From a virus (taxonomy: Duplodnaviria; Heunggongvirae; Uroviricota; Caudoviricetes), in the IMG/VR virus record IMGVR_UViG_3300030021_000014: a stretch of DNA of 12,819 nt; one strand, written 5' to 3'. A model generated the notes under the pieces. That model saw only the letters and a list, made by a program, of their open reading frames with translations, was not told the origin of the DNA and ran no database searches. This document shows positions 1 to 12,819 of the stretch, piece after piece. A program made the translations under genes and the position numbers. Each line of letters begins with the position of its first letter. Positions within the stretch are counted from its first letter, which is position 1.

Positions 1-218
1 GGGGAACGGTGGCAACACAAAAGGGAGCTGATGCTGGATATGCCTTACCATTTGCTTTTCCCTATGCAGGCTTATTTGCGACCGGAAACCGTGGAACATC
101 TGGCTACAATGCCGCGATGAATGTGCGTATTGCCAGCAGAACGCATATCAGTATTCAGAACTGGTCGCCATCCGGAGAGGGCACCGAAGATTGTTGTTTT
201 ATCGCGCTGGGGTATTAA
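1..218 (+). CDS. Tail fiber protein, C-terminal variable domain of an alternative (silent-orientation) cassette; 5' end lies upstream of the window
   Basis: Frame is open from the window edge to TAA at 216-218; the M at 9 in the ORF track is a GTG codon inside a longer frame. C-terminal motif FIALGY resembles the YLALGI end of the minus-strand fiber (659..1234). A tail fiber assembly gene follows 3 nt downstream. Confidence 0.6.
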   Translation, partial: GTVATQKGADAGYALPFAFPYAGLFATGNRGTSGYNAAMNVRIASRTHISIQNWSPSGEGTEDCCFIALGY

Positions 219-220
219 GA

Positions 221-631
221 ATGAATAAATTTTATAAAGGCTCTTTCTATCCGAAAGCACTAAAAGAGGTATATATCAGCGCCGGTTCATGGCCTGAAAA
301 TGGCGTTGATGTTGATGATGAAACAATGGCAATTTACACAGGCGTAGCGCCACAAGGCAAAACGCTGGGGGCTGATAAAAATGGTAATCCTGCGTGGATT
401 GATATCCCGCCACTCTCCGCTGAACAACAGATTATTCAGGCTGAACAGAAAAGAACGGTATTGCGTTCTATGGCTGATAAGGAAATAGTCTGGAGACAGG
501 ATGCTTTTGATGCGGAAATCGCGACGGCAGAAGAAACCGCCGCGTTATCTGAATGGAAAAAATACCGGGTGCTGCTGATGCGCGTTGATACCTCAAAAGC
601 CCCCGATATTCTGTGGCCTCCGCAACCGTAA
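221..631 (+). CDS. Tail fiber assembly chaperone (Tfa family)
   Basis: ATG at 221 (MNKFYKG...), 136 aa, starts 3 nt after the fiber stop. Size and sequence character match recalled enterobacterial prophage Tfa proteins. The ORF-track start at 191 is an upstream in-frame extension overlapping the fiber stop. Confidence 0.8.
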   Translation: MNKFYKGSFYPKALKEVYISAGSWPENGVDVDDETMAIYTGVAPQGKTLGADKNGNPAWIDIPPLSAEQQIIQAEQKRTVLRSMADKEIVWRQDAFDAEIATAEETAALSEWKKYRVLLMRVDTSKAPDILWPPQP

Positions 632-634
632 CAA

Positions 635-655
635 AAAGCCGCTGTTTGCGGCTTT
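635..655. terminator. Bidirectional intrinsic terminator between the convergent tfa and tail fiber genes
   Basis: AAAGCCGC (635-642) / loop TGTTT / GCGGCTTT (648-655): 8-bp stem flanked by an A-run on one side and T-rich sequence on the other. It fills the 27-nt gap between the tfa stop (631) and the fiber stop (659). Confidence 0.55.
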
Positions 656-658
656 CTC

Positions 659-1234
659 TTATATCCCCAGCGCAAGATAGGTGTAGCTGTCAATATTGTT
701 TGCCGTACCGTTTCCACTCCAGCCATAGAGACTAAACCCGGTCTGCGTGTAATTAACAGATGTTACATACCGATGGTCAGCTGTGATTTTATGCGGAAGA
801 ACGATAAATGGGGTGACATTAAACGGTTTTTTAAAGCTTACCGTAGCATTGGTCGCCTGAACCGAGCCGTGCCCCCATTGCAGCAGCAATCCTCCCGGTA
901 ATTCAAAGTACCCATCAGCCTCCAGTAACCGTTCTCCAAATCCAAGGTTTTCGAGAGCCGTTTTCACCGTGCCATCCGATTTGATATCGCCAAACGGATT
1001 CTTGCGGCTTAACAGCAGCGCGCGAAGTGCGGTAAGTAACTGGTCGTGCCGCCCCTTCTCCAGGCTGGCACCGGATGCCTCCACCACGCTGCAAAGTTCC
1101 TCCTGCAACATGTCAAAGTAGTCATCATCCAGATCGGTGGCAGGCGTGCCGGTCTGGGGGTTACCACGGGTAAAACCGTTCTTACCCGCGCCGAACTTAT
1201 CCTTCTGCGCGGTTTTCGTGTCTATACGATGCAT
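659..1234 (-). CDS. Tail fiber protein (191 aa) with constant N-terminal half and variable C-terminal half
   Basis: ATG at 1234 with GGAG 6 nt upstream; follows the gp48-like gene stop by 3 nt. A Hin-family crossover-like site sits mid-gene at 932-957. Confidence 0.8.
932..957. other. Candidate Hin/Gin/Pin/Cin-family serine-invertase crossover site (hix/gix-like) inside the tail fiber gene
   Basis: TTCTCCAAATCC-AA-GGTTTTCGAGAG: two imperfect inverted 12-bp half sites around a 2-bp AA core. About 20 of 26 positions match the recalled hixL sequence TTCTTGAAAACCAAGGTTTTTGATAA. It encodes residues ~93-100 (LENLGFGE) of the 191-aa fiber, at the constant/variable junction. Confidence 0.6.
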
Positions 1235-1237
1235 GGA

Positions 1238-1822
1238 TTACTCCGGATATTTAAAAATTACGTAGGTATGCGACGGGCAGAGTTTGTTAAGCACACACTC
1301 GACAACGGTGTCACCCCAGATACGCAGTGCGGAATCACAGGGATCGCCACATGTCATCCAGGTGGTGTTGGCGGCGGCTGGCATGTTGACCTGCCAGTAA
1401 TACCGCCATTCCGGCGCATTCACAGCGTCAGTACAGGCCGATGAGCAGGTGAACGTGCTTTTGTCGTATCGCGTGATGGTGGCATCTGGTCTGCCCAGGG
1501 CAGCAAGCTGTGCAAGATAAAAATCCTCGTTGATGCCACCCGCCAGGTTAACCTTCGCATCCAGCCGTTGCTGACGCTGGCGAAGGGTCTGTGTCCCAGC
1601 GGGAATACATTCATCCGGCAGGCCGCACAGACGCTCCCAGCGATTTATCAGTTCGGTGGTGGTGCGCGGATCCAGCTCCCGCATCAGGGCATCCGCACGC
1701 TGATGAACGCGGGTTAATGACGGTGCCGCACCGGCAATCGACGGATCGCTGGCTGACCACGCCGGACCGGGGGGCAACAGTGCCGACAACAGACGGATGT
1801 AATCATCGTTTGTCACGTCCAT
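1238..1822 (-). CDS. Mu gp48-like tail protein (YmfQ/DUF2313-type), fiber-proximal baseplate component
   Basis: 194 aa, the same length as recalled E. coli e14 YmfQ. Its start overlaps the baseplate J stop (ATGGACGTGA) and it lies immediately upstream of the tail fiber. Confidence 0.75.
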
Positions 1823-2871
1823 GAAATCGTCCCCAGTACCGCCAGTTCATTTTTTGCAATGGAGATATTGTCTGCCGGTGCAAGCAACTGATGGCTGTAT
1901 TCCCCGTTCGCACCGGAAATCGCTTCACTGATACGTGACACCTTCAGTTCTCCCTGCGGATAACCATCACGCAGCAGGAACGAACGCAACTCCGCGGTAA
2001 TGGCAGCCCGTATTTCTGGTGTGTCCGGCGTCACGCGGATATGAAAATCCACCGTATGTGCCACCGGCCTGAATACATACAAATCAGAGCCTGCCACCGG
2101 GGCCAGTGGCCCGATATGTTGTCTTGCTGCCGTTTCCGTTGATTCTTCCGGAATGGGATTAATCAGGTCACTGCCGGCAATCATCACACCGACAGTCCCC
2201 GTTCCCATCCAGTGGCGGTATGTCCATGCACGGGTAATGCCGGGCACTTCTTTAGCCCAGACAACATAGTCCCCATCAGCCCCGCCCTGAGGCGTCCAGT
2301 AATACCGCTCAATGACGCGGGCGCGCCACGTTTCCAGATCTTCAGTATCGAATCCGCCAGTCAGGGTATCTGCAACACCGGAAGACGGCAGACCATTCAC
2401 CGGCGTGACCAGGATTAATGCCGTACCGTCGTCAGCGTTACCGACCGCGCCTGCACTTGAGCAGGCGATCGGCACGCGCAGGACACCACCGGAGCTGGTT
2501 GCATCAGCAGTTGCCGTGTACTGAACCAGGTCATCGCGCTGAATCACGCTCCCGGCGGTCACCTTCAGGCCATCGCTGACACCTTCCCAGCGCATATACC
2601 CGCTGGCAGCCGTGGCCCCCTTGCGCGGACACCGTTTCATCGCAGCATGTCGCGCCAGCCAGGACTCATCGCACAGGTCAGGCAGCATGTTCATTGCCAG
2701 ATAATCGATGTAACCGTAAACCGTATGCAGCGCCGCCGCATACACCTTTGCCCGCACGTCTTCATCCATGCGCCGGAGCGTGTCGCTGACGTCCAGCCTG
2801 GCGAATAAATCGTTACGGAGCATACTGATATTTTCTGCCAGCGTCGGGCGCTGAAATTCACTGTCCGCCAT
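1813..2871 (-). CDS. Baseplate J-like protein (Mu gp47 family)
   Basis: 352 aa; sits between the gp46-like and gp48-like genes as in Mu-like baseplate modules; 14-nt overlap with the upstream gene. Confidence 0.85.
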
Positions 2872-3286
2872 GCGTTATCGCACTCCACAGATCATCAAAA
2901 GAAATCATTACCGGTCCGTCACGACGCCAGAGGGTGATACTGTTACCCAGCTCATTAATCCCGGTGCGGCGGATATCCAGATCAATACGGGACACCACGC
3001 CGTCATCAATCATCCATTGCAGGCATTCGCGGATATACCCCCTTACTGTCTGCACCAGCTGATTGGTCAGTTTGCTGCGCTGAAGCAGCCACAGTCGGGA
3101 GCCGTAACGGTCATTCTGTACCGCAGGCCAGGTATCCCCCCACCATCCCATCGGGACGTCGGCGTTGTCATCAGGCTCCGCCCGCCGCCAGGTAAACAGG
3201 GAAATCACCACGGCGCGGGTCAGCGGATCCAGCGGTGCGCTGGCGCAGGTGCGTTTACCGTTCACCGTCAGCCACAGTTCCATCAT
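2858..3286 (-). CDS. Phage GP46-family baseplate protein (Mu gp46 / P2 gpW-like)
   Basis: 142 aa; ATGA overlap with the upstream spike gene; position and size typical of gp46. Confidence 0.8.
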   Translation of the reverse strand: MMELWLTVNGKRTCASAPLDPLTRAVVISLFTWRRAEPDDNADVPMGWWGDTWPAVQNDRYGSRLWLLQRSKLTNQLVQTVRGYIRECLQWMIDDGVVSRIDLDIRRTGINELGNSITLWRRDGPVMISFDDLWSAITHGGQ

Positions 3287-3831
3287 GCCTCCATCGCTTT
3301 ATCCGGTTTGTCGGTGTTACTGCCCTGACCGTTCTCTCTGTGACGATGCCCGTTATAGGCAAGCCGCATCGCTGACATGGTAGTGCCGCTGGAGTCGCAC
3401 AGGTCTTTCACCTGTCCTGTCACTTCCAGGTCCATTTCAAAACGTGCTTTAGGTGAATTGCGAAACGTGATCGTTTTACCTGCACCGTCCACCACGATCC
3501 CCTCCCGGGTCAGCGTCACGGACTGCCCCTGATCGTCATAGACAGCCACCTCACCCGTCTGCAGCCCTTTCAGGCGGTAGCGCCGGTCCGACACCGTAAC
3601 AACCACCGCATGAGAACGGTCGCCATCCGGAAACAACACCACCGCTTCCGCACCGCTGTTTGCCCTTGCGGTAAAACCGTAGGGTTCAAGATGTTCAACC
3701 CCGGCTTTGGGTTCACCGGCAATCAGGGACACATCCACGGTCTGACATTTCGTGGCGGCACTGATGCTTTTCACCACGGCCCGCCCAATCAGGCCGAGGA
3801 GTTGTCGCTGCATGGCTTCAATCGCCCTCAT
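3283..3831 (-). CDS. Baseplate assembly protein V / central spike (Mu gp45-like)
   Basis: 182 aa; gene order between the P-like and gp46-like genes; translationally coupled (TGATG). Confidence 0.8.
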   Translation of the reverse strand: MRAIEAMQRQLLGLIGRAVVKSISAATKCQTVDVSLIAGEPKAGVEHLEPYGFTARANSGAEAVVLFPDGDRSHAVVVTVSDRRYRLKGLQTGEVAVYDDQGQSVTLTREGIVVDGAGKTITFRNSPKARFEMDLEVTGQVKDLCDSSGTTMSAMRLAYNGHRHRENGQGSNTDKPDKAMEA

Positions 3832-4910
3832 CAGAACGGGTCCTCCTGTACTCTGGCTTTTTTCTTTTTCCGCGCGCCGGGATCTTCGGGTTCAGGCAGA
3901 TAAGCATCAGGCGGGCCGACACGGATTTCCGTCAGGGTGCCGTTCTGGTCCTGAGTAAACGTGACTTCCGAAACAAGCAGTTCGGTATTGTCGAAACCAC
4001 AGACCGGATCGAAGACAATCACCCGCTGGTTGGGCTGCCACAGCGTACCGTTACCCTGTCGCCAGCCCTGCACCACATAAGTGGTTTCATCCGTCCGCGC
4101 CGCCCGTTGTCGGGCTTCAAAGTCAGCACGCGCAATACAGCCTGCCCCCGTGGCCTGCCCTGTCTGCCTGATATACATCGGACGGTAACGGGCAATAAAT
4201 GCGTCCTCTGTGCGGGCCCGCAGCGCAGTTGTGGTGGCCTCACCGAAATCATCGTCGTTTCCGGCACGCTGCCCCGCCACCTGGTAAACAGAAAACCGCT
4301 CCCGGATACTCTTCTCCGTATCGCAGGAAAGGATGTTTTCCCCAAGTACCAGCGCGGTATGTGCCCGCGTTGAGCCAATACCGCCAATCACCAGCCTGCC
4401 GTGCGGGTCGTCGTAAGCCAGCGCCTGCTGCTGACCGAGTATTTTGTTGATTACCTCAATCACCGTTTCACCGTGATCAGGCTGAACATCAGGAATAACA
4501 CCCGACGGCGCACCGCTGTTCACCACCTCAATGCCGAAAGGTGCAGCAAGCGCCTGCGCAATCTGCACCAGCGAGCGTCCGTTAAACTGTGTCGGTTCGG
4601 CTGCACAGTCAATCAGCTCAGCCGTCAGACTACGTCCGGCAATACCGGTGCTGACCGAACGGGCATCGTAACGAACGGGAGTCGCCTCCACCCAGCCGGT
4701 GATCACCAGCTCATCACCAATTAGCACTTCCACTTTTGAACCGTTTTTAATGCGCGGCTGAAGCGTGGTGATACCCTCATCTCCCGGCCATTGGCGAGTG
4801 ATCTCCACACTGAAATCCCGCGCCAGCCGTTCAATACCGGCACCGATGCGCACCGATGTCCAGCCATTCCACTCCCGGCCATTTACCCGTAGCGTGACAT
4901 TGTCGTTCAT
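3831..4910 (-). CDS. Mu P (gp44)-like tail protein / late control D-family baseplate hub
   Basis: 359 aa; ATGA overlap with the upstream gene; position after the DNA-circularization-like gene. C-terminus contains a KKKK run. Confidence 0.8.
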   Translation of the reverse strand: MNDNVTLRVNGREWNGWTSVRIGAGIERLARDFSVEITRQWPGDEGITTLQPRIKNGSKVEVLIGDELVITGWVEATPVRYDARSVSTGIAGRSLTAELIDCAAEPTQFNGRSLVQIAQALAAPFGIEVVNSGAPSGVIPDVQPDHGETVIEVINKILGQQQALAYDDPHGRLVIGGIGSTRAHTALVLGENILSCDTEKSIRERFSVYQVAGQRAGNDDDFGEATTTALRARTEDAFIARYRPMYIRQTGQATGAGCIARADFEARQRAARTDETTYVVQGWRQGNGTLWQPNQRVIVFDPVCGFDNTELLVSEVTFTQDQNGTLTEIRVGPPDAYLPEPEDPGARKKKKARVQEDPF

Positions 4911-6235
4911 TGCACTGGCACCTTCAGAGGGATCACCGGCACAAAGCCGGGATGCGTAATGGCATTACGCCGGATAATGTCCGCGTCACGCGCCGCGTTA
5001 TCAAACCAGGTCGCCGCCAGCACCAGCGCGGGTAAAACCTCATCCGGCGTGCGCTGAATGATCCGTGCAGACTGTTCAAGGCGCGTGTTGATATCCGCAT
5101 TCAGATCTGCTTTCACCCGGCGCAGCGCCAGAAACAGCGCATCACTGGTTGTACGGGACAACTCCTTATCAATTGCCGTATTCAGTGTGTCGCGAATGTC
5201 GGTCAGTTCTTCCCACGTTGGCAGGTCAACCGTGTTTTTCACCGCCGGTGCATTGTTCAGTGCCGGATGCGTGACAGAAGGCCAGCCGGTGCTCTGCGCG
5301 GGTGTTGTTGACTGCCCTACTGTGGCATTCTGCATCACCGCGGAAGTTGTGGGCGCAGGCAATCGTGTGACGGCATACGCCGCTTCGCTGATTGCGGTCG
5401 TACGAAGGGTGCTGGCAACCACGTTACGCTGCTGCGTCGCCGTGGCGGTAGTTTTACTGTCCGTTTTCCAGACGCCGCGCGGTTGCAGATCGCTGCCGAG
5501 GCTGACACCGGAAAGCGTTTTGATCATGGTGACCAGGTCGCTGGCGTTACCATAAAGGCGTTTCCCGGTACGCCACATTTTCTGCACCTGCTCAACGAAA
5601 TTTTTGCCTGACGATGGTGGCGGCAGAAGTACCGAGATATCCCCCTGCAACAGCCTGGCGGCATCCGATACGGCAGAATCCACCACTTTCATCGCATCAG
5701 AAACATACCCAAGCATTGTGCTGGCATTACCGACGACGTCGTTCTGCACAAAATCTGCCACGCCATCGATACTGAAACCACTGAAGCTGTCACTGATGCA
5801 GTCATCCAGTGCAGAACAGGATGACATCAGCGTCTGCGCCGTCGCCGCACCTGAAGTGGGGTAAGAGAGTTCTCCCGCTTCGACAAACTTCAGGTCAAAG
5901 CGGACAATACGCCCTTCACTCTTCGATGTGCTGACCCGAACTTCCCCGTCAACACAGACTTTCAGCTCACCGTAAGTCGGATGGACAAGCGTGCCGGGAC
6001 CGGGTTTATTCAGCGCGTCAATCAGGCGATCGCGCTGGTCAAAGCAGTCATCTCCCACCACATAAGCTGTGATGGACGGGCGGAAAGTGATTTTCCCCAG
6101 GTCTTCGGTATAGGGTTTGTCGCGGTTCGGGTATTCGTGCGTTTCCACACGACGACCGGTTCCCGCACTTTCTTCTTCAACCTTAAACGGCACACCGCGA
6201 AATGACGCGTCCTGAAGTCTGTCTTTCCACGTCAT
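4907..6235 (-). CDS. Mu N (gp43)-like DNA circularization protein
   Basis: Preferred start is ATG at 6235 (MTWKDRLQDASFRGVPF...) with GGAG 7 nt upstream. The ORF-track starts at 6277 and 6250 lack an RBS and overlap a hairpin. N-terminal sequence matches the recalled DNA_circ_N signature. Confidence 0.75.
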   Translation of the reverse strand: MTWKDRLQDASFRGVPFKVEEESAGTGRRVETHEYPNRDKPYTEDLGKITFRPSITAYVVGDDCFDQRDRLIDALNKPGPGTLVHPTYGELKVCVDGEVRVSTSKSEGRIVRFDLKFVEAGELSYPTSGAATAQTLMSSCSALDDCISDSFSGFSIDGVADFVQNDVVGNASTMLGYVSDAMKVVDSAVSDAARLLQGDISVLLPPPSSGKNFVEQVQKMWRTGKRLYGNASDLVTMIKTLSGVSLGSDLQPRGVWKTDSKTTATATQQRNVVASTLRTTAISEAAYAVTRLPAPTTSAVMQNATVGQSTTPAQSTGWPSVTHPALNNAPAVKNTVDLPTWEELTDIRDTLNTAIDKELSRTTSDALFLALRRVKADLNADINTRLEQSARIIQRTPDEVLPALVLAATWFDNAARDADIIRRNAITHPGFVPVIPLKVPVQ

Positions 6236-6256
6236 ATAAACTCCGTACATAAAAAA

Positions 6257-6272
6257 TCCCACCGGAGTGGGA
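6257..6272 (-). terminator. Intra-operon terminator-like hairpin plus T6 between the tape measure and gp43-like genes
   Basis: On the minus strand: TCCCAC-TCCG-GTGGGA followed directly by TTTTTT (plus-strand 6251-6256 is A6). Lies 24 nt after the TMP stop and 15 nt before the next start. Confidence 0.35.
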
Positions 6273-6295
6273 CTCATTAACAGATTAATTTTTCA

Positions 6296-8131
6296 TTACC
6301 TGCCAAAGCGCGTATAGCCAACATCATGGCTGACATCAAAACCGCTGGATCGCGTTTCCATAACCCGCATACCCGGAGGCGAATTCACAAAAGAGACCTT
6401 GATCTCACCATCAACTTTTGGCGCAGAAGCTTTGTTAATCATGAAGGGATTCGGGCCTGTGGCACCGGAGGCGTTGTTTGACTGAGCCGGATCTACCGCC
6501 TGATAAGGTGTGTATCCCCGTGCCGGTATTCCCGTCCCATAAGCATCATAAGCACCCGCGCCCCACTGCGCAGAGTTAATGGCATCGACCGTGTCACCGG
6601 AACTGTCGGTAAACCACTCAATAATTGGCTTCAGTTTGTCCCACATATCCTGAAACCACTTAACAACCGGTCCCCAGTTATTGATTACCATCCCCAGCGG
6701 CGACCAGGCAAAAACCTTCTTCAGAAGTTCCCAGCCAGCCTCAAAATAAGGACCAATGGTTTCCCAGAGCTTCTTGAAATAAGGTCCGACAACATCCCAG
6801 TTAGTGATAATTAATCCCGCAGCCAGGGCTATCGCCGTCGCAATCATTCCAATCGGCGTCATCGACATGATCCTGCTGACAATACTGATGGCACCGCCAA
6901 CGCCCATCAATCCCAGTTTCAGAATCGCAAGACCGGCAGCAAGCCCGACGACGCCGCGAATAACCCGGGGATTTTCATCCGCAAACTTCGTGAATTTTTC
7001 CCCTAACTCCCCCAGCCATTGCGTGATATTTTTGGCGTCACCAGAAAATGCGCCGCCAATAGCCGCAAGGCCGTTAGTTGCGGTCCCCGTCATTGCCTCC
7101 CACAGGTTGGACAGCGTACCAAGCTGGGCCTGAACACGTTTATTCAGGCTGGCCTGTTTATTCATCTTCTGCTGGATCTGATCGTAGCCATCCTTTCCTT
7201 TATCGATTAGTGCATTGACCACCTGAAGGGTTTCGGCATCATCACCAAATATTGCCTTAAGTACACCTGTTCGCTTAACGTCGGTCAGTTTTCGCAGCTT
7301 TGCCAGTTGCCTGAACATGTTATCAAGACCGCCAAAACTTCCTTTGCCGTCAGTAAAATCGAGCTGTACCCCGAGTTTCTGGCGGGCCATGATTTTATTG
7401 ACGTCCCTGATTTTCTTAACGCTTAATCCGGACTGGATAACTTTTCGCAGGGCGTTACCTGCCGACTCCCCGTTCATCCCCATCTGATCCATCATGACGC
7501 TGATGGGGGCAAGGCTCTGTGCAGCCTGAAGACCGTCCTTGTTCACCATCTTCAGAACAGAGCTGGTTTTAGTGAAGAAGGACAACATGTTGGTATCGTC
7601 AACACCCAGATAAAACGCCTTCTGGATAGTGTCGAACAGCCCCATCATGTCTTCTGACGCCGTTCCGGTAGCATCCTGCATCTTTGCAGCAAACTCAGCA
7701 GCCGCTTCCGGTGTTTTTTTCAGTTGTACCGCAAGATAAGCTGTCGCTTTACCCACACCGCCAAGAATGTTTTCTGCCGGGATCCCCTGACGCACCAGCA
7801 TCTGCATCATGTTCTGGAAATCAGCCGTTGTACCGGGTAGCTGGTTACCCAGGCCAATAGCCAGTTTATTGATGTCCTGAAAGCTCTTTCCGACCTCGCC
7901 GTTCGCATCCATCATGGCGACTTTCAGCCCGGTGGCGGCGTTTTCCTGATCGGCATAAGATTTCAGGGAAAGCGTCAGACCCGCTGCCAGTCCGCCACCA
8001 AGCGCCAGCCCACCCTGTGACGCTTCTTCCGCCTGGCGTTTAAATCCCCGGATTTTCTTTTGCATTTTCGACAGCGCGGGAGAAAGCCTGTCGACACCGG
8101 TGATCAACGCCTTAAGCTCAAATTCCGCCAT
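6296..8131 (-). CDS. Tail tape measure protein
   Basis: 611 aa, Ala/Gly/Leu/Gln-rich with a hydrophobic segment. Sits between the frameshifted chaperone and the baseplate genes; AGGAG upstream of ATG at 8131. Confidence 0.85.
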   Translation of the reverse strand: MAEFELKALITGVDRLSPALSKMQKKIRGFKRQAEEASQGGLALGGGLAAGLTLSLKSYADQENAATGLKVAMMDANGEVGKSFQDINKLAIGLGNQLPGTTADFQNMMQMLVRQGIPAENILGGVGKATAYLAVQLKKTPEAAAEFAAKMQDATGTASEDMMGLFDTIQKAFYLGVDDTNMLSFFTKTSSVLKMVNKDGLQAAQSLAPISVMMDQMGMNGESAGNALRKVIQSGLSVKKIRDVNKIMARQKLGVQLDFTDGKGSFGGLDNMFRQLAKLRKLTDVKRTGVLKAIFGDDAETLQVVNALIDKGKDGYDQIQQKMNKQASLNKRVQAQLGTLSNLWEAMTGTATNGLAAIGGAFSGDAKNITQWLGELGEKFTKFADENPRVIRGVVGLAAGLAILKLGLMGVGGAISIVSRIMSMTPIGMIATAIALAAGLIITNWDVVGPYFKKLWETIGPYFEAGWELLKKVFAWSPLGMVINNWGPVVKWFQDMWDKLKPIIEWFTDSSGDTVDAINSAQWGAGAYDAYGTGIPARGYTPYQAVDPAQSNNASGATGPNPFMINKASAPKVDGEIKVSFVNSPPGMRVMETRSSGFDVSHDVGYTRFGR

Positions 8132-8542
8132 GTGTGCGTTTCTCCTGCTCTATCCTGTTTGCCTGACTGACCAGCAAGGGAATTTCACTGATCGGCATAT
8201 TCAGCAATTCGAAAGGATTAATGCGCCAGTAGCTGGCGCAGTCAAAGAAGCGATCAGTGAGGTATTCAGCCGTCAGGCCTGGAGGAAAAAACCAGCCACA
8301 AGCCACGCCGCTGCATTCAGGTCTGCCGGAGACATCTGGTCGACAGAGCTTTGCGGCACTTTCGCCAGCCGCACAATGTATTTCGACACCACATGCGCCA
8401 GAAGTCTGACTGACTCATCCTGATTCATCTGGTAGGGATACCCCAGCTCGCGGACATCCTTCCCGGTGGGTTCATCAAACTCCAGTACGGAGAGTGTCTC
8501 ACCATGAGCGATAATCGGTTTCTTTAACTCAAGCTCTTTCAT
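8118..8542 (-). CDS. Tail assembly chaperone, -1 frameshift fusion product (G-T / E-E' analogue)
   Basis: Slippery heptamer T_TTT_TTC on the minus strand (plus coordinates 8285-8291) lies 3 codons before the 0-frame stop. The -1 frame stays open for about 57 more codons to a stop at 8118-8120, 11 nt into the tape measure gene. Confidence 0.55.
8273..8542 (-). CDS. Tail assembly chaperone (short, in-frame product)
   Basis: 89 aa; sits between the tube and tape measure genes, the conserved position of lambda G / P2 E-type chaperones; TAATG coupling to the tube gene. Confidence 0.75.
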   Translation of the reverse strand: MKELELKKPIIAHGETLSVLEFDEPTGKDVRELGYPYQMNQDESVRLLAHVVSKYIVRLAKVPQSSVDQMSPADLNAAAWLVAGFFLQA

Positions 8543-8898
8543 TACTGGTAATCCCCTTCTTCACCGTGGAACTCAAGATCAACCGTGCCTTCTTCGGCAT
8601 TATGGTTCGCTTCGCCGTGCAGCCAGGCGGACGACAATACATAGACCTGACCGTTCGCCAGCTCGGCAGTGATGGTCATCTCATCAGACGAGGTGATTTT
8701 GCTCACCGGAAAATTCTTCGGCACCTTGAAGGTCCCTTTGACATAAGGCGCACGGTGAGTTTCCTTGCGGTCCACTGAACCGTCCAGGCCGATGATGTCA
8801 TCATTGACCGTCCTGTTCATGGGCACCTCAATGCCGCCGGTCAGCGATAGCTGCTGACCGTCAATTTTGAAATAACAGGTTCCCCCGATACGGGCCAT
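8542..8898 (-). CDS. Tail tube protein (Mu gpM-like)
   Basis: 118 aa, immediately downstream of the sheath with TAATG coupling; typical size and position for a contractile-tail tube protein. Confidence 0.8.
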   Translation of the reverse strand: MARIGGTCYFKIDGQQLSLTGGIEVPMNRTVNDDIIGLDGSVDRKETHRAPYVKGTFKVPKNFPVSKITSSDEMTITAELANGQVYVLSSAWLHGEANHNAEEGTVDLEFHGEEGDYQ

Positions 8899-10394
8899 TA
8901 TGCAGACTCCTCTGAATACTGAAGACGGAACTGGTTAACCACGGCAAAGACACGCAACTGGTTAACATAGTCAGACGGGAACAGCGTGTTCAGGCGGTTC
9001 GGATCGCTGGCATCACGCTCCACAACCAGGTACTGCTTAAACAGTTCGTAGTTTTCCACGATCCCCGCACGCTCAAGCTGACGGTAGGTTGCCAGCAGTT
9101 CCCCTTTGATCACCGCCGGTGTGACAATCGCCTGACCGGGACCAAAGCGGGTACCGTCGCTGGCAAGCTTGTGACGCCCGTACTTACTGGTAATGACGGA
9201 TTTCAGTTTGCGCAGCACATACGCGCTGGTATGCAGCGTCTCGCTGTCGAGGTAGCTGTTATCCGCAACACCGTAAGCGTTTTTCCTGTACGTGGTGACA
9301 TCACGCTGAATGCGCAGCACCCCGCTTTCGACATACGCCGTTGCCACGCCATGAGACAGCAGGGTCTGTTGTTCGGTCATCGTGAACCGTTTCCCCTTCG
9401 GCGCAGGCAGCATACCCACCAGCTCACCGGTCTGCGTGGGACGTGCCGGATCGTTGCGAATAAACACCGCTGCGCGGGCGGTACGGCTTGCCGCCAGCTC
9501 GTCGGCAGGCGTCTGGGTCTCTTTTTCGTATCCCGCCAGGGTAATGTGCTGCTGGTTAAACTGGTCACCTGCGTTCACCAGTTCTGACAGCGTGCCGATC
9601 TTTGCCGTATACACATGACCATACAGCTGACGCGCATAGCTCCAGCGACCGCTGGTATCGTTCATCTCTGTCACCAGCGTGTTAACGGAGGCCGTGTCGT
9701 TGAACGGCAGGCCAATATAATCAAACGGCTCATCCGCCATTGCAGCCACCGCGCCGGTGAGAACCGGAGCGCCCGTTCCGGCGCTCCCCGTCGCCACAGC
9801 AATCTGTACGCCCGCTGGCAGCACTTCGCCCCCACCAAAGCCGTAGTAATTGAGGCTGACAGGAATTTCATTCCCGCAAAGCCCCTTATGACGCGCGGTC
9901 AGCGTGACCACGCCTGCCGAAGATGAGGCCGTAAACGGCAGGGCCGGAACGGCATTAATGGCATCTTTGATACTGCTGGCAATCGTCGTGACGTTATCGC
10001 CGTTGGTCACCGGTGCCTGCACGCGGGTACGTCCCACATAAACATTCACCGTGCCGGTTTCGGTTGCCGCCCCGGTCACCGTCAGCGTAACCGTTGCCGC
10101 CGCGCCCGTTGATTCAGGAACGGCAATTACATACAGTTCACCAAACGGGTCGGTCTGGCGATAAGCCTCGACCATACGCGCCAGCTGACTTCCCGCACCA
10201 CAAATCTGGCGTGCATAGTCTGCCGACGGCATCAGCACCAGACTGTTGGCAACAATCTCTGCACCGTTATTGGCATGACCAATCAGCAGCGATGCTCCGC
10301 TGTCCTGTGCAGTATTCGCAGCCTGGTTATCCATTTCCGCATAAAACAGCGGAACCAGCGTATTCGACGGAATGGTGTTAAAGCTTATCGTCAT
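8898..10394 (-). CDS. Tail sheath protein (Mu gpL-like)
   Basis: 498 aa (MTISFNTIPSNT...); size, composition and position upstream of the tube gene. Confidence 0.9.
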   Translation of the reverse strand: MTISFNTIPSNTLVPLFYAEMDNQAANTAQDSGASLLIGHANNGAEIVANSLVLMPSADYARQICGAGSQLARMVEAYRQTDPFGELYVIAVPESTGAAATVTLTVTGAATETGTVNVYVGRTRVQAPVTNGDNVTTIASSIKDAINAVPALPFTASSSAGVVTLTARHKGLCGNEIPVSLNYYGFGGGEVLPAGVQIAVATGSAGTGAPVLTGAVAAMADEPFDYIGLPFNDTASVNTLVTEMNDTSGRWSYARQLYGHVYTAKIGTLSELVNAGDQFNQQHITLAGYEKETQTPADELAASRTARAAVFIRNDPARPTQTGELVGMLPAPKGKRFTMTEQQTLLSHGVATAYVESGVLRIQRDVTTYRKNAYGVADNSYLDSETLHTSAYVLRKLKSVITSKYGRHKLASDGTRFGPGQAIVTPAVIKGELLATYRQLERAGIVENYELFKQYLVVERDASDPNRLNTLFPSDYVNQLRVFAVVNQFRLQYSEESA

Positions 10395-10548
10395 CGGTGT
10401 TCACCTTTTTATTCACGCGCCGGATATCACCCGCTGCTTCACGGCGCAGCCAGTAGTTGTTCTCATCAACATTTCGCCCTTCGGCGGGCAAAAGGTCGCC
10501 GTGGGCAGGGTCAGGCACTGACCGCCCTTTAACAGGTTTCACAAACAT
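10378..10548 (-). CDS. Small conserved phage protein (56 aa) upstream of the sheath gene; not in the supplied ORF track
   Basis: Hand-translated: ATG at 10548 with GAGGA 5 nt upstream, overlapping the preceding stop; MFVKPVKGRSVPDPAHGDLLPAEGRNVDENNYWLRREAAGDIRRVNKKVNTDDKL; stop TAA at 10378-10380, overlapping the sheath start by 17 nt. Fills an otherwise unexplained 160-nt gap in a tightly packed operon. Confidence 0.5.
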   Translation of the reverse strand: MFVKPVKGRSVPDPAHGDLLPAEGRNVDENNYWLRREAAGDIRRVNKKVNTDDDKL

Positions 10549-10556
10549 GATGATCC

Positions 10557-11117
10557 TCAGGAAGGAAGGGGTATTTCGGTGTGATGTTCGATATCGCCGT
10601 CAGGCCCGTTACCGGGATCGAGATAATCAACATCAATCGCCAGCGTTCGCAGTTCATCCAGACTGTTCAGGTCATCCTGCTGGCGGGTATCGTCTTCGGT
10701 CAGCTCGCTGATGACCGAAAAATCGAACTGATAAATCAGCTCATGACGATTCAGATCCAGCAGCGTGCCGCCGTCATAGGTAATCGGGTTACCACACGCT
10801 TCCGGGTTCCAGCCCAGCAGAGCCTTAAAGAGCATCTGCCGGACATCGTCCACCACATCATACGAGGCAAACTGACCGCGCTCATCACGCCCGTTACTCA
10901 GTATGACAACCACGGAGAAGCCCTCTTTCAGCTCCTGCCAGTAGTCGGTCTGGCTTTTGTTTTCTCCCGGAGAGTCATCACCCGGTACCACATATGCCGC
11001 CGGGAGCTTCAGCTTTCCGACCTCCGGCAGATTTTTGAACTGGGCCGCGCCTGCCACCCGGTTTTCAAAATACGGACAGCGGGCACGCAGCGCAGCAATA
11101 ACAGGAGTCAGTTTCAT
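10557..11117 (-). CDS. Tail terminator / completion candidate (Gp37-family-like)
   Basis: 186 aa; ATGA overlap with the gp10-like gene; function inferred from its position between head-tail joining genes and the sheath. Confidence 0.55.
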   Translation of the reverse strand: MKLTPVIAALRARCPYFENRVAGAAQFKNLPEVGKLKLPAAYVVPGDDSPGENKSQTDYWQELKEGFSVVVILSNGRDERGQFASYDVVDDVRQMLFKALLGWNPEACGNPITYDGGTLLDLNRHELIYQFDFSVISELTEDDTRQQDDLNSLDELRTLAIDVDYLDPGNGPDGDIEHHTEIPLPS

Positions 11118-11620
11118 CTGTGTCGTCGCTCCGGCTTCAGTGATTTACGCAATTCCCGCGCCAGAAAATAGCGTGTCCAGCTGCGGTTCTTTTCAAGCGT
11201 TTCCACCATGAAGTTATTACGTGGAGCCAGTCGCCAGCCGCTGCCACCGGATGCACCACGATGATGGCTGCGACGACGCTTTGCCCCTCGCCTCACGCCA
11301 TAGAACAAAAAAGCCGGATAAAAATCACCGGTGATACGGCGGTTTCCCTCTCCATTACGCTGGTTAGGGGCTATACGTGCCATAAAACCAGGGCGATGTT
11401 TACTGGCTCTGGGTACCATGTAACCAATCGAACGAGCCAGGCGTCCGGTCTGATAACCGGGGTTTTCACCCGGTGCCGACCGCGCACGGCGCATCACCAG
11501 CCGACGGGCATCACGCATATGACGCTGACCAATCGTGACAAACGCCCGCCGGACACGGGCGCGGTTAAAGCGCATCTCCGCGGGCTGCTGAAAATCAACG
11601 TGCAAAAAGGAAGTCGTCAT
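11114..11620 (-). CDS. HK97 gp10-family head-tail joining protein
   Basis: 168 aa, basic; GGAGG 5-6 nt upstream of ATG at 11620; position after the head closure gene. Confidence 0.65.
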   Translation of the reverse strand: MTTSFLHVDFQQPAEMRFNRARVRRAFVTIGQRHMRDARRLVMRRARSAPGENPGYQTGRLARSIGYMVPRASKHRPGFMARIAPNQRNGEGNRRITGDFYPAFLFYGVRRGAKRRRSHHRGASGGSGWRLAPRNNFMVETLEKNRSWTRYFLARELRKSLKPERRHR

Positions 11621-12005
11621 TGTTGCCTCCGTGACTCTGCCTACATTCGCCCAGCTCCGTACACTCCAGCAGCAGAAAGCGCCGCGCCCCGTTCAGATCG
11701 CGCTGACGTTTCACCCGGTACACACTGTCACCGCAGACCACCTCATAATCAGCGGTGATCCCCCGGCGGTAACGAATGGTGATGTAATGGGTGATGGCGT
11801 CCCCGGTCTGCGCGGTTTCCTGCCAGGTGGTGGCACTGGTCTGGATAACCTTCGCCCATGTCCGGAACGTAACCGGGTATTGAGGCTCCACGCCAAAGTT
11901 ATCCGCGGGCATATCCACCCGCAGGCGGATCAGGACGCGTTTATTCAGTTCACCGGGGTCCGGCAGAATGTAGGTTGCGCTGGTCTGCGCCTGACGAATT
12001 TTCAT
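11595..12005 (-). CDS. Head closure / head-tail adaptor protein
   Basis: 136 aa; ATGA overlap with the connector gene; conserved connector-closure-gp10 order of HK97-like head modules. Confidence 0.65.
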   Translation of the reverse strand: MKIRQAQTSATYILPDPGELNKRVLIRLRVDMPADNFGVEPQYPVTFRTWAKVIQTSATTWQETAQTGDAITHYITIRYRRGITADYEVVCGDSVYRVKRQRDLNGARRFLLLECTELGECRQSHGGNNDDFLFAR

Positions 12006-12325
12006 TGCGGAAAGTACCTGTACGGGCCGACAAGCCAGCCAAAACTCTGCGGCATGTCGAGTTTCTCCACTTCCGTAACCGACGAGCGGTTTTCGTAAAA
12101 ATGGCTGATAAGCATCAGCATCCCCAGACGAATATCATCCGGCAGGTGCAGCCCGTCCGGATCGCTGTCCGGAATGGTTTCATCCGGTGCATAGAGCTTC
12201 CGGTTCAGATACGTTTCCGTCCGCTTTTGTGCCGCACATGCCAGCAGTTGCAGATGGCGGTCATCAGTATCGAAATCCTCATCCAGCCGGAGTTGGGCTT
12301 TAATCTCTTCCATTGTCAGAAGCAT
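12002..12325 (-). CDS. gp6-like head-tail connector protein
   Basis: 107 aa; N-terminus MLLTMEEIKAQLRLD resembles the recalled gp6-like connector signature; AGAGGG upstream. Confidence 0.7.
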   Translation of the reverse strand: MLLTMEEIKAQLRLDEDFDTDDRHLQLLACAAQKRTETYLNRKLYAPDETIPDSDPDGLHLPDDIRLGMLMLISHFYENRSSVTEVEKLDMPQSFGWLVGPYRYFPQ

Positions 12326-12327
12326 AC

Positions 12328-12528
12328 TCAGCCCTCTTTACTGGTCGTGGCTTTTTTCTCTTTTGCCGCTTTACTGCTTTTTGCACTGATTCCGCGCTCT
12401 GCTAACCCGGCCTGAAGTGCAATCTCCTGCACCCGGGCAGGAAGCGCCCCGTCGTCATACTCACCGGCCCGAATGACCTCAACACGCATACCGTCCGGTG
12501 ACCATTTCAGATCTTGTTTCAGGATCAT
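12328..12528 (-). CDS. Hypothetical small head-module protein with lysine-rich C-terminal tail
   Basis: 66 aa ORF between the capsid and connector genes; its stop abuts the connector start. The RBS is weak and I do not recognise a family. Confidence 0.45.
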   Translation of the reverse strand: MILKQDLKWSPDGMRVEVIRAGEYDDGALPARVQEIALQAGLAERGISAKSSKAAKEKKATTSKEG

Positions 12529-12550
12529 GATTCTTCACCCGTCAGAACAG

Positions 12551-12570
12551 GGGGCGCGGTTCCGCGCCCC
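12551..12570 (-). promoter_or_regulatory. Perfect GC-rich hairpin just after the major capsid stop codon
   Basis: GGGGCGCG-GTTC-CGCGCCCC: 8-9 bp all-GC stem, 7 nt after the capsid stop and 22 nt before the next ATG. No clean U-tract follows on the minus strand (CUGUUCUG). Confidence 0.4.
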
Positions 12571-12577
12571 TGAGTGA

Positions 12578-12819
12578 TTACGCCGCTGCAATCTTCAGCA
12601 GTTTGATGGCCTGCGAATCGACCAGCATCCCGCCGGTGCGCTTGGTGGTATAAAAACCGACAAACGGTTTATTGGTGTACGGGTCACGCAGAATGCGGGT
12701 GCCGATACGGTCAACGATGGTGTAACCCCGTTTGAAGTTACCAAATGCAATGGCTTTCGCATCAGCGGCGATATCCGGCATCTGTTCGTTTTCAGCGATA
12801 CCGTAACCCGCCAGAGAGG
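12578..12819 (-). CDS. Major capsid protein (HK97 fold), C-terminal portion; 5' end beyond the window
   Basis: Open frame runs to the window edge. C-terminal sequence ...DPYTNKPFVGFYTTKRTGGMLVDSQAIKLLKIAAA resembles recalled HK97-type capsid C-termini; lies immediately upstream of the connector genes. Confidence 0.65.
   Translation of the reverse strand, partial: SLAGYGIAENEQMPDIAADAKAIAFGNFKRGYTIVDRIGTRILRDPYTNKPFVGFYTTKRTGGMLVDSQAIKLLKIAAA

Follow-up and report, generated by a model that had tools for sequence, protein, structure and literature searches.

The 26-bp sequence at positions 932 to 957 of the window, the whole 12,819-nt stretch of viral DNA analysed here, is very probably the fibre-proximal recombination site of a Pin-type (Din-family) invertible tail-fibre segment, as judged by sequence comparison. 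It represents an allele of pixL and would belong to a myovirus prophage of the e14/SfV family in E. coli. An inverted partner site lies to the left of the window, and both orientations of the DNA between the two sites occur in natural genomes. In the lineage from which the window derives, an IS903-type element appears to have taken the place of the invertase gene pin. The activity of the switch in this lineage is putative, as neither an invertase gene nor a recognisable enhancer is found beside the sites.

The site reads TTCTCCAAATCC-AA-GGTTTTCGAGAG on the plus strand, giving the 26-mer TTCTCCAAATCCAAGGTTTTCGAGAG. It is present in one copy: a scan allowing up to 3 mismatches returned positions 932 to 957 as the sole match within the window, and dinucleotide shuffles of the window (n = 200) gave 0 matches. 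The 12-bp halves form an imperfect dyad (9/12) around the AA core, in agreement with the earlier note, which had described a crossover site of two inverted 12-bp halves around AA. Comparison with published Din-family sites (Table 3 of PMC3241671) gave 24/26 identities to pixL of e14, 20/26 to hixL, 19/26 to cixL and cixR, and 17/26 to gixL. The best 26-mer per shuffled window reached only 16–18/26 (30 shuffles). Thus, the close match to hixL and gix given in the earlier note was a fair lead, but the true closest relative is the pix site of e14. The outer half and the core are identical to pixL, and the inner half-site TTCTCCAAATCC carries two changes, C7A and A10T. The placement at the midpoint of the fibre gene was correctly recognised from the outset: the site encodes codons 93–101 (A-L-E-N-L-G-F-G-E) of the 191-aa ORF at 659–1234 on the minus strand, with the core in codon 97. 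The coordinates of all features are collected in Table 1.

Table 1. Features of the fibre switch and its surroundings. Positions refer to the window unless a locus (L number) is named.
Feature	Position	Strand	Remarks
Fibre-proximal 26-bp crossover site, pixL-type	932..957		Inner half TTCTCCAAATCC on the Sv side, AA core, outer half GGTTTTCGAGAG on the constant fibre side
Core dinucleotide AA, read as TT within Leu97 on the coding strand; probable strand-exchange point	944..945		Reciprocal hybrid sites in flipped relatives
In-window part of the 1,197-bp invertible block	1..945		Continues to the partner-site core 251–252 nt left of base 1
Constant fibre part Sc, aa 1–97	946..1234	-	Orthologue of the N-terminal part of K-12 StfP and of the short tail fibre of SfI/SfII/SfV
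Variable tip Sv fused to Sc in the window, aa 98–191, Gp53-like_C domain	659..943	-	No assembly gene after Sv in the window orientation
GC-rich hairpin, terminator-like, between the convergent gene sets of the block	635..655		Consensus match only
Tail-fibre assembly gene (tfa), 136 aa, Caudo_TAP; belongs to the alternative tip	221..631	+	Co-oriented with the late operon only after inversion; flipped order in L013 is fibre (252 aa)-tfa
3' part of the alternative tip S'v	1..218	+	ORF begins left of the window, just outside the partner site
Mu gp48/YmfQ-like gene	1238-1822	-	Directly upstream of the fibre gene
Baseplate J/gp47-like gene	1813-2871	-	Upstream of the Mu gp48/YmfQ-like gene and the fibre gene; Mu order gp47-gp48-S-G segment-gin
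Morphogenesis genes: capsid gene end and connectors, sheath, tube, tape measure, baseplate genes, fibre	Sheath 8898-10394; tape measure 6296-8131	-
IS903-type element in place of pin	L014 15225-15365; L010 11549-12605; L031 7549-8605; L008 10724-11780		In L014 just left of the window
pin with E78*	L003/L005/L006 11553-12107; L025/L027/L032 7553-8107
gtr regions	L010 12756-15004; L031 10179-12759; L004 17797-20045

The minus strand of the window carries a complete myovirus morphogenesis module, and positions 957–12819 are 97–98% identical to the Shigella serotype-converting phages SfI, SfII, and SfV. In a megablast search with positions 1–1300, P2-like prophages match 1–956 or 1–950 with 99.8–99.9% identity, and SfI, SfII, SfIV, SfV, and e14-like prophages match 932–1300 with about 98%. 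The homology breakpoints between the phage families fall within the site. As the two homologies overlap only in these 26 bp, the site is the boundary of a portable cassette. No complete E. coli genome was found by this search to contain positions 1–1300 contiguously. A few kb past the switch, relatives carry genes for O-antigen modification, namely gtrA, gtrB, and a YfdI_N-type gtr-specific gene, which assigns the prophage to the serotype-converting SfV-like group. A phage integrase is located further beyond the gtr genes in L010 and L008.

The window itself contains no inverted copy of the site, as its partner lies outside. The source contig, L014 (k141_17673, ENA assembly ERZ27277098), was located by searching for exact protein matches to a private variant of the 359-aa baseplate protein. 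It matches the window over all 12,819 nt with 100% identity and reaches 455 nt further left. Among the genomes compared, the metagenome lineage has private nonsynonymous variants at window positions 4617 (E98 of the 359-aa baseplate protein) and 8975 (S474 of the sheath). The leftward extension recommended in the earlier note revealed the partner, which reads TTTTCATAAACG-TT-GGTTTGGGAGAA (TTCTCCCAAACCAACGTTTATGAAAA as the 26-mer of the window-state junction). Its reverse complement, TTCTCCCAAACC-AA-CGTTTATGAAAA, equals pixR in 26/26 positions and is inverted relative to the site at 932–957, and the core is AA in both. Orientation and core were therefore as anticipated, but the distance was not: a partner 60–100 nt upstream had been expected, and it lies 239–264 nt left of base 1. 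The invertible block measures 1,197 bp from core to core. Exact-pattern scans of IMG/VR for the two 26-mers gave 0 matches and are uninformative.

No third site above background was found in the window and its 455-nt left extension, and on sequence grounds the arrangement is a simple switch between two states. Multiple-inversion systems (Min of p15B; shufflons) were considered and rejected, as they need more than two crossover sites and only two score above background.

The block contains two convergent sets of genes. The second, divergent fibre C-terminus that had been read from positions 1–218 of the opposite strand is real. It ends in ...FIALGY, compared with ...YLALGI for the expressed tip, the two tips are 24% identical, and both match the Pfam family Gp53-like_C. 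The cassette is asymmetric, as an assembly-chaperone gene stands behind the alternative tip but not behind the tip expressed in the window (91 variable amino acids). L002 has another Sv tip, with a 77-aa ORF behind it instead. For annotation, this means that the 191-aa "gp53-like" protein is the constant fibre part joined to one of two alternative tips, and that the convergent "gp53-like" fragment with tfa is the silent alternative.

The silent half of the switch carries various insertions. Other IS elements break the silent tip at window 118/119 in the close relatives L004, L007, and L011 (IS3-family, plus an IS66-family element in L004), and in L008 tfa is truncated by an IS element at window 512. 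This half seems to be either a frequent IS target or tolerant of damage. A separate observation concerns Logan metagenome contigs: L016, L017, L019, and L020, which originate from different runs, all end at window 902, and L015 ends at 863, that is 30–69 nt inside the variable tip. The flip junction and SNPs relative to the P2-like cassette copy were considered as causes, and neither explains the breaks.

The fusion predicted for the flipped state at the core is in frame and yields a 252-aa fibre followed by tfa. Thus, the fibre stays in frame in either orientation and differs in its C-terminus, with a length of 191 aa in the window and 252 aa after inversion. The flipped junction is contiguous in three complete E. 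coli genomes. In E. coli EC7, the order is ymfQ-fibre252-tfa-silent Sv-pinE, with pinE intact and the cassette interior identical to the window. The 252-aa fibre protein (P0001) is 100% identical on 29 contigs.

The half-sites also record the exchange. In the window lineage the two sites are TTCTCCAAATCC-AA-GGTTTTCGAGAG, which pairs the Sv half with the Sc half, and TTCTCCCAAACC-AA-CGTTTATGAAAA, which pairs the S'v half with the pin-side half. In the flipped relatives L013 and L031 the sites are the reciprocal hybrids, S'v paired with Sc and Sv with the pin side around the AA core, and the 26-mers of the flipped-state junctions are TTCTCCCAAACCAAGGTTTTCGAGAG and TTCTCCAAATCCAACGTTTATGAAAA. Hybrid sites are present in L013, L031, L025, L027, and L032. 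Owing to the bases that differ between the half-sites, the exchange can be confined to CCAA at positions 11–14 of the site. L006 and L032, from two assemblies of one series, form a near-isogenic pair. Their flanks differ by 2 mismatches in 6,303 nt and 2 in 5,287 nt (99.97%), and the 1,197-bp block is 100% identical and inverted exactly core to core. The evidence on orientation is a comparison between genomes and not a measurement within one population. With the inverted partner, the in-frame flipped fusion found in nature, and near-isogenic genomes inverted for the block, the proposed switch that swaps fibre C-termini is borne out.

The 26-mer alone does not prove a switch, because phage SfII (L023) keeps a perfect pixL (26/26) at 1755–1780 inside its fibre gene, with no partner and no invertase. 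This solo copy is probably kept for encoding the conserved ALENLGLGE motif. The site of the window could be viewed in the same way, as a 26-mer retained for encoding A-L-E-N-L-G-x-G-E and for marking a module boundary at which phages exchange DNA by homologous mosaic recombination, rather than as a working site. The homology between P2-like and e14/SfV-like prophages does break exactly there. Such a reading is nevertheless very improbable. The source contig has the inverted partner at the other end of a two-tip cassette, and neither an exact core-to-core inversion nor reciprocal hybrid half-sites would be expected from homologous exchange between phages. Furthermore, the same sites are proven substrates in K-12 (PMC4272514, PMC12529663): the e14 P segment inverts in culture (PMC4272514), and both PinE and, acting in trans, PinQ of prophage Qin flip the K-12 segment (PMC12529663). 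What proves the switch is the partner site together with the orientation variants.

The mechanism proposed here follows that of serine invertases. A dimer of the approximately 185-aa invertase would bind each of the two inverted 26-bp sites (932–957 and pixR). The four subunits would then synapse, cut both sites at the central AA/TT, rotate by 180 degrees, and religate, leaving the 1,197-bp block inverted. As the cut would fall in codon 97 of the fibre gene, the constant amino acids 1–97 would be joined to one of two tips. Joining to Sv would give the 191-aa fibre with no assembly gene behind it, which is the state in the window, and joining to S'v would give the 252-aa fibre followed by the Tfa assembly gene. 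Inversion would thereby change the receptor-binding end of the fibre and, putatively, the host range. The switch of the source lineage is an orphan, in which an IS903-type element and an adjacent deletion took pin, presumably with the enhancer inside it. Any further flipping would have to come in trans from the Din invertase of another prophage.

The invertase gene had been expected just upstream of position 1, and it is not found there. At 50 nt past the partner site, L014 passes into a 1,057-bp IS903-type element through its terminal inverted repeat GGCTTTGTTGAATAAATCG, and the contig stops within this element. The junction falls 4 nt short of the place where sister prophages have the pin ATG. 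In L004 and L011, whose tail genes are at least 99.96% identical to those of the window, the junction continues as TACC-ATG, the start of a 184-aa invertase gene. An adjacent gene for a serine invertase of about 185 aa is present in the sister prophages L004, L011, L007, L013, and L002. The sister-prophage invertase has Resolvase and HTH_7 domains, is 94% identical to K-12 PinE, and matches the Mu Gin structures 3UJ3 and 4M6F (E 2e-92). The predicted serine recombinase of 180–190 aa is thus absent from the source lineage, but an intact 184-aa gene occupies exactly that place in sister prophages.

The near-side junction of the element (GGGAGATC abutting GGCTTTGTTG) is identical in L014, L018, L010, L012, and L031, and tblastn of these loci detected no pin in any of the five. 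Because the junction is shared and the loci lack pin, its removal in the window lineage is assigned to an IS-associated deletion, and in the closest complete genomes pin is deleted. For L014 itself, the loss would follow from the shared junction, as the far side of the element lies outside the assembled contig. The far flank of the element is located 247 nt past the pin stop in L031 and about 1.7 kb past it in L010, and no 9-bp target-site duplication is present at the element in L031 or L010. The IS junctions are nested (L031/L008, L010, and L008 at window 512), and it looks as if IS-adjacent deletions in series were eating into the fibre switch towards the gtr genes. When the IS-junction state was sought by exact pattern, in either orientation, among JGI metagenome contigs and in IMG/VR, 0 matches resulted, which is uninformative. 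Complete E. coli genomes, searched by megablast with both orientations of the near-side junction (Jn1), contained no match over its full length.

In the Din family, a Fis-bound enhancer in cis assists the reaction, and in Gin, Cin, and Hin it is located in the 5' part of the invertase gene. By analogy, the enhancer was presumably lost together with pin in the source lineage. A degenerate Fis-motif scan of the pin 5' region, combined with an alignment of the first 300 nt of gin and pin, yielded no decisive pair of sites. The enhancer presumably resided in the 5' part of pin, as in gin, hin, and cin. Loss of pin would be expected to lock the switch. In K-12, the P segment is locked in a pinE deletion mutant (PMC12529663), which argues by analogy that losing pin and the enhancer can freeze the switch.

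L031 departs from this expectation. It is flipped, lacks pin, and is 99.94% identical to the window, with 0 mismatches in the cassette interior. It shares the near-side IS junction with the source contig, L010, and L012, and the far-side junction with L008, and SNP 2821 is common to L031 and the unflipped L010 and L012. At least one inversion must have followed the loss of pin if a single IS was involved, because either order of events leaves a pin-less pair of relatives in opposite orientations. L031 is the one flipped genome found in the pin-less clade. Genomes without pin include CP043750.1 in the flipped and GCA_974490435.1 in the unflipped orientation. A second, independent clade shares the pin nonsense codon E78* and likewise contains both orientations, L003/L005/L006 versus L025/L027/L032.

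The switch might instead be a frozen relic. Its sites are intact, but it would have been dead since pin was deleted with the enhancer inside it, the fibre would be fixed at 191 aa, and the flip of L031 would predate the loss of pin. This history is possible, though rather unlikely. It accounts for the deletion of pin beside IS903 in L014, L010, L012, and L031, for the window orientation of the other four clade members seen, and for the locked pinE mutant of K-12 (PMC12529663). To accommodate a flipped L031 that shares IS junctions with L010, L012, and L014 on the near side and with L008 on the far side, as well as SNP 2821 with L010 and L012, it would call for an ancestor with two IS903 copies around pin, from which the same pair of junctions could arise independently in either orientation. 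No such double-IS intermediate, with two IS903 copies flanking pin, was found among 34 loci; histories with a single IS require an inversion after pin loss, and the E78* clade repeats the pattern on its own.

The presence of both orientations within the pin-less clade suggests flipping in trans, and orphaned copies are probably still flipped occasionally by the invertases of other prophages. The more far-reaching proposition is doubtful and is offered tentatively: that the orphaned switch, having lost invertase and presumed enhancer to an IS903-mediated deletion, still flips in natural populations, driven in trans by another prophage's Din invertase without the native cis enhancer. Two clades have no functional invertase themselves, owing to the IS903 deletion in one and to a common nonsense codon in the other, yet near-identical genomes within each occur in both orientations. 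They thus provide support from natural populations for the trans-activation between prophage invertases demonstrated in the laboratory. The natural pin deletion also makes the need for a cis enhancer testable. If orphans do flip in trans, the fibre switches of E. coli prophages would be linked by cross-talk into a network, and the host could retain an orphan cassette to its own benefit, for instance through an StfE2-like block to superinfecting phages.

Such a benefit forms the basis of another reading, in which the bacterium retains the orphan segment as a domesticated defence switch and the pin-side chimeric ORF, a short leader joined to the facing tip, acts like StfE2 of e14. In the orthologous K-12 locus, StfE2 was shown to block adsorption of other phages once the segment is flipped by the invertase of another prophage (PMC12529663). 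Here, whichever way the block faces, an ORF with its own ATG runs through the partner site and on into the silent tip (168 aa in L010, 133 aa in L031), and the orientation varies although pin has been lost. The tips, however, differ from those of K-12, and the phenotype is purely putative in this prophage. Unlike K-12 e14, it also has its head and tail module complete, at 98% identity to the functional phages SfI and SfII, and an ordinary host-range role in the virion is therefore sufficient. Domestication for defence is an unlikely explanation, and a virion fibre switch is the preferred one.

The cassette is not restricted to this prophage group. The identical cassette (window 1–948) is also found in P2-like prophages, where it is joined to the N-terminus of a P2 H-type fibre, at 5574–7771 of L001 (E. 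coli Y5) and in AR_0137 (H13/H51). The outer half-site of the P2-like copies differs (GGTATGCGAGAA). Both orientations are present, with strain Y5 and AR_0137 opposed, and in Y5 only a recombinase pseudogene fragment is annotated beside the cassette. At L009 11448–12121 and L029 7430–8121, the cassette is served by another Din invertase of 187 aa that is 55% identical to PinE, and the invertase-side outer half-site is divergent (ATATTTGAAAGG-TT-...). Invertase module and cassette have evidently been reassorted in these two loci, as judged from their sequences.

Among known systems, the Salmonella Hin/hix system shares the recombinase family and the site architecture, with 20/26 identities between hixL and the window site and an AA core in both. 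Hin, however, flips a promoter and not a coding segment, and hin and its enhancer lie inside the inverted DNA. The G segment/Gin of Mu and the C segment/Cin of P1 share the gene order, with baseplate genes gp47-gp48 followed by the fibre gene, the invertible block, and the invertase gene. Their crossover also lies inside the fibre ORF, combining a constant N-terminus with alternative C-termini through 26-bp sites with a 2-bp core, and the sister-lineage invertase matches Gin at E 2e-92. In contrast, the window site has only 17/26 identities to gix and 19/26 to cix, gix has a GA core instead of AA, the blocks of Mu and P1 measure 3–4.2 kb, and each of their tips has its own assembly gene. SfI, SfII, and SfV share the structural module at 957–12819 (97–98% identical), the fibre N-terminus, and a perfect pixL in the fibre gene, whereas SfII has one fixed tip with tfa and lacks both partner site and invertase.

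The closest counterpart is e14 of K-12, whose P segment and Pin (pinE) were reportedly described as an inversion system by Plasterk and van de Putte in 1985 (cited in PMC4272514). The K-12 locus is arranged as ymfQ-stfP-tfaP / tfaE-stfE-pinE and thus has the same order of ymfQ, fibre gene (Sc), invertible block, and pin, with the same outer half-sites. Amino acids 1–97 of StfP equal the N-terminus of the window fibre bar one residue. The pixR site equals the partner site (26/26), the outer half and core of pixL are identical, and PinE is 94% identical to the sister-prophage invertase. Unlike here, the K-12 block measures 1,797 bp instead of 1,197 bp. Both tips of the present cassette are other sequences (Gp53-like_C), only one of them with a Tfa gene, and two substitutions distinguish the inner half-site. 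Furthermore, the structural module is intact here, and pin has been deleted by an IS903-type element in the source lineage. The switch is therefore already known: it represents one allele of the e14 Pin/P-segment system and is found in many E. coli genomes, and the natural evidence for the flipping of orphaned cassettes is the only mildly new point.
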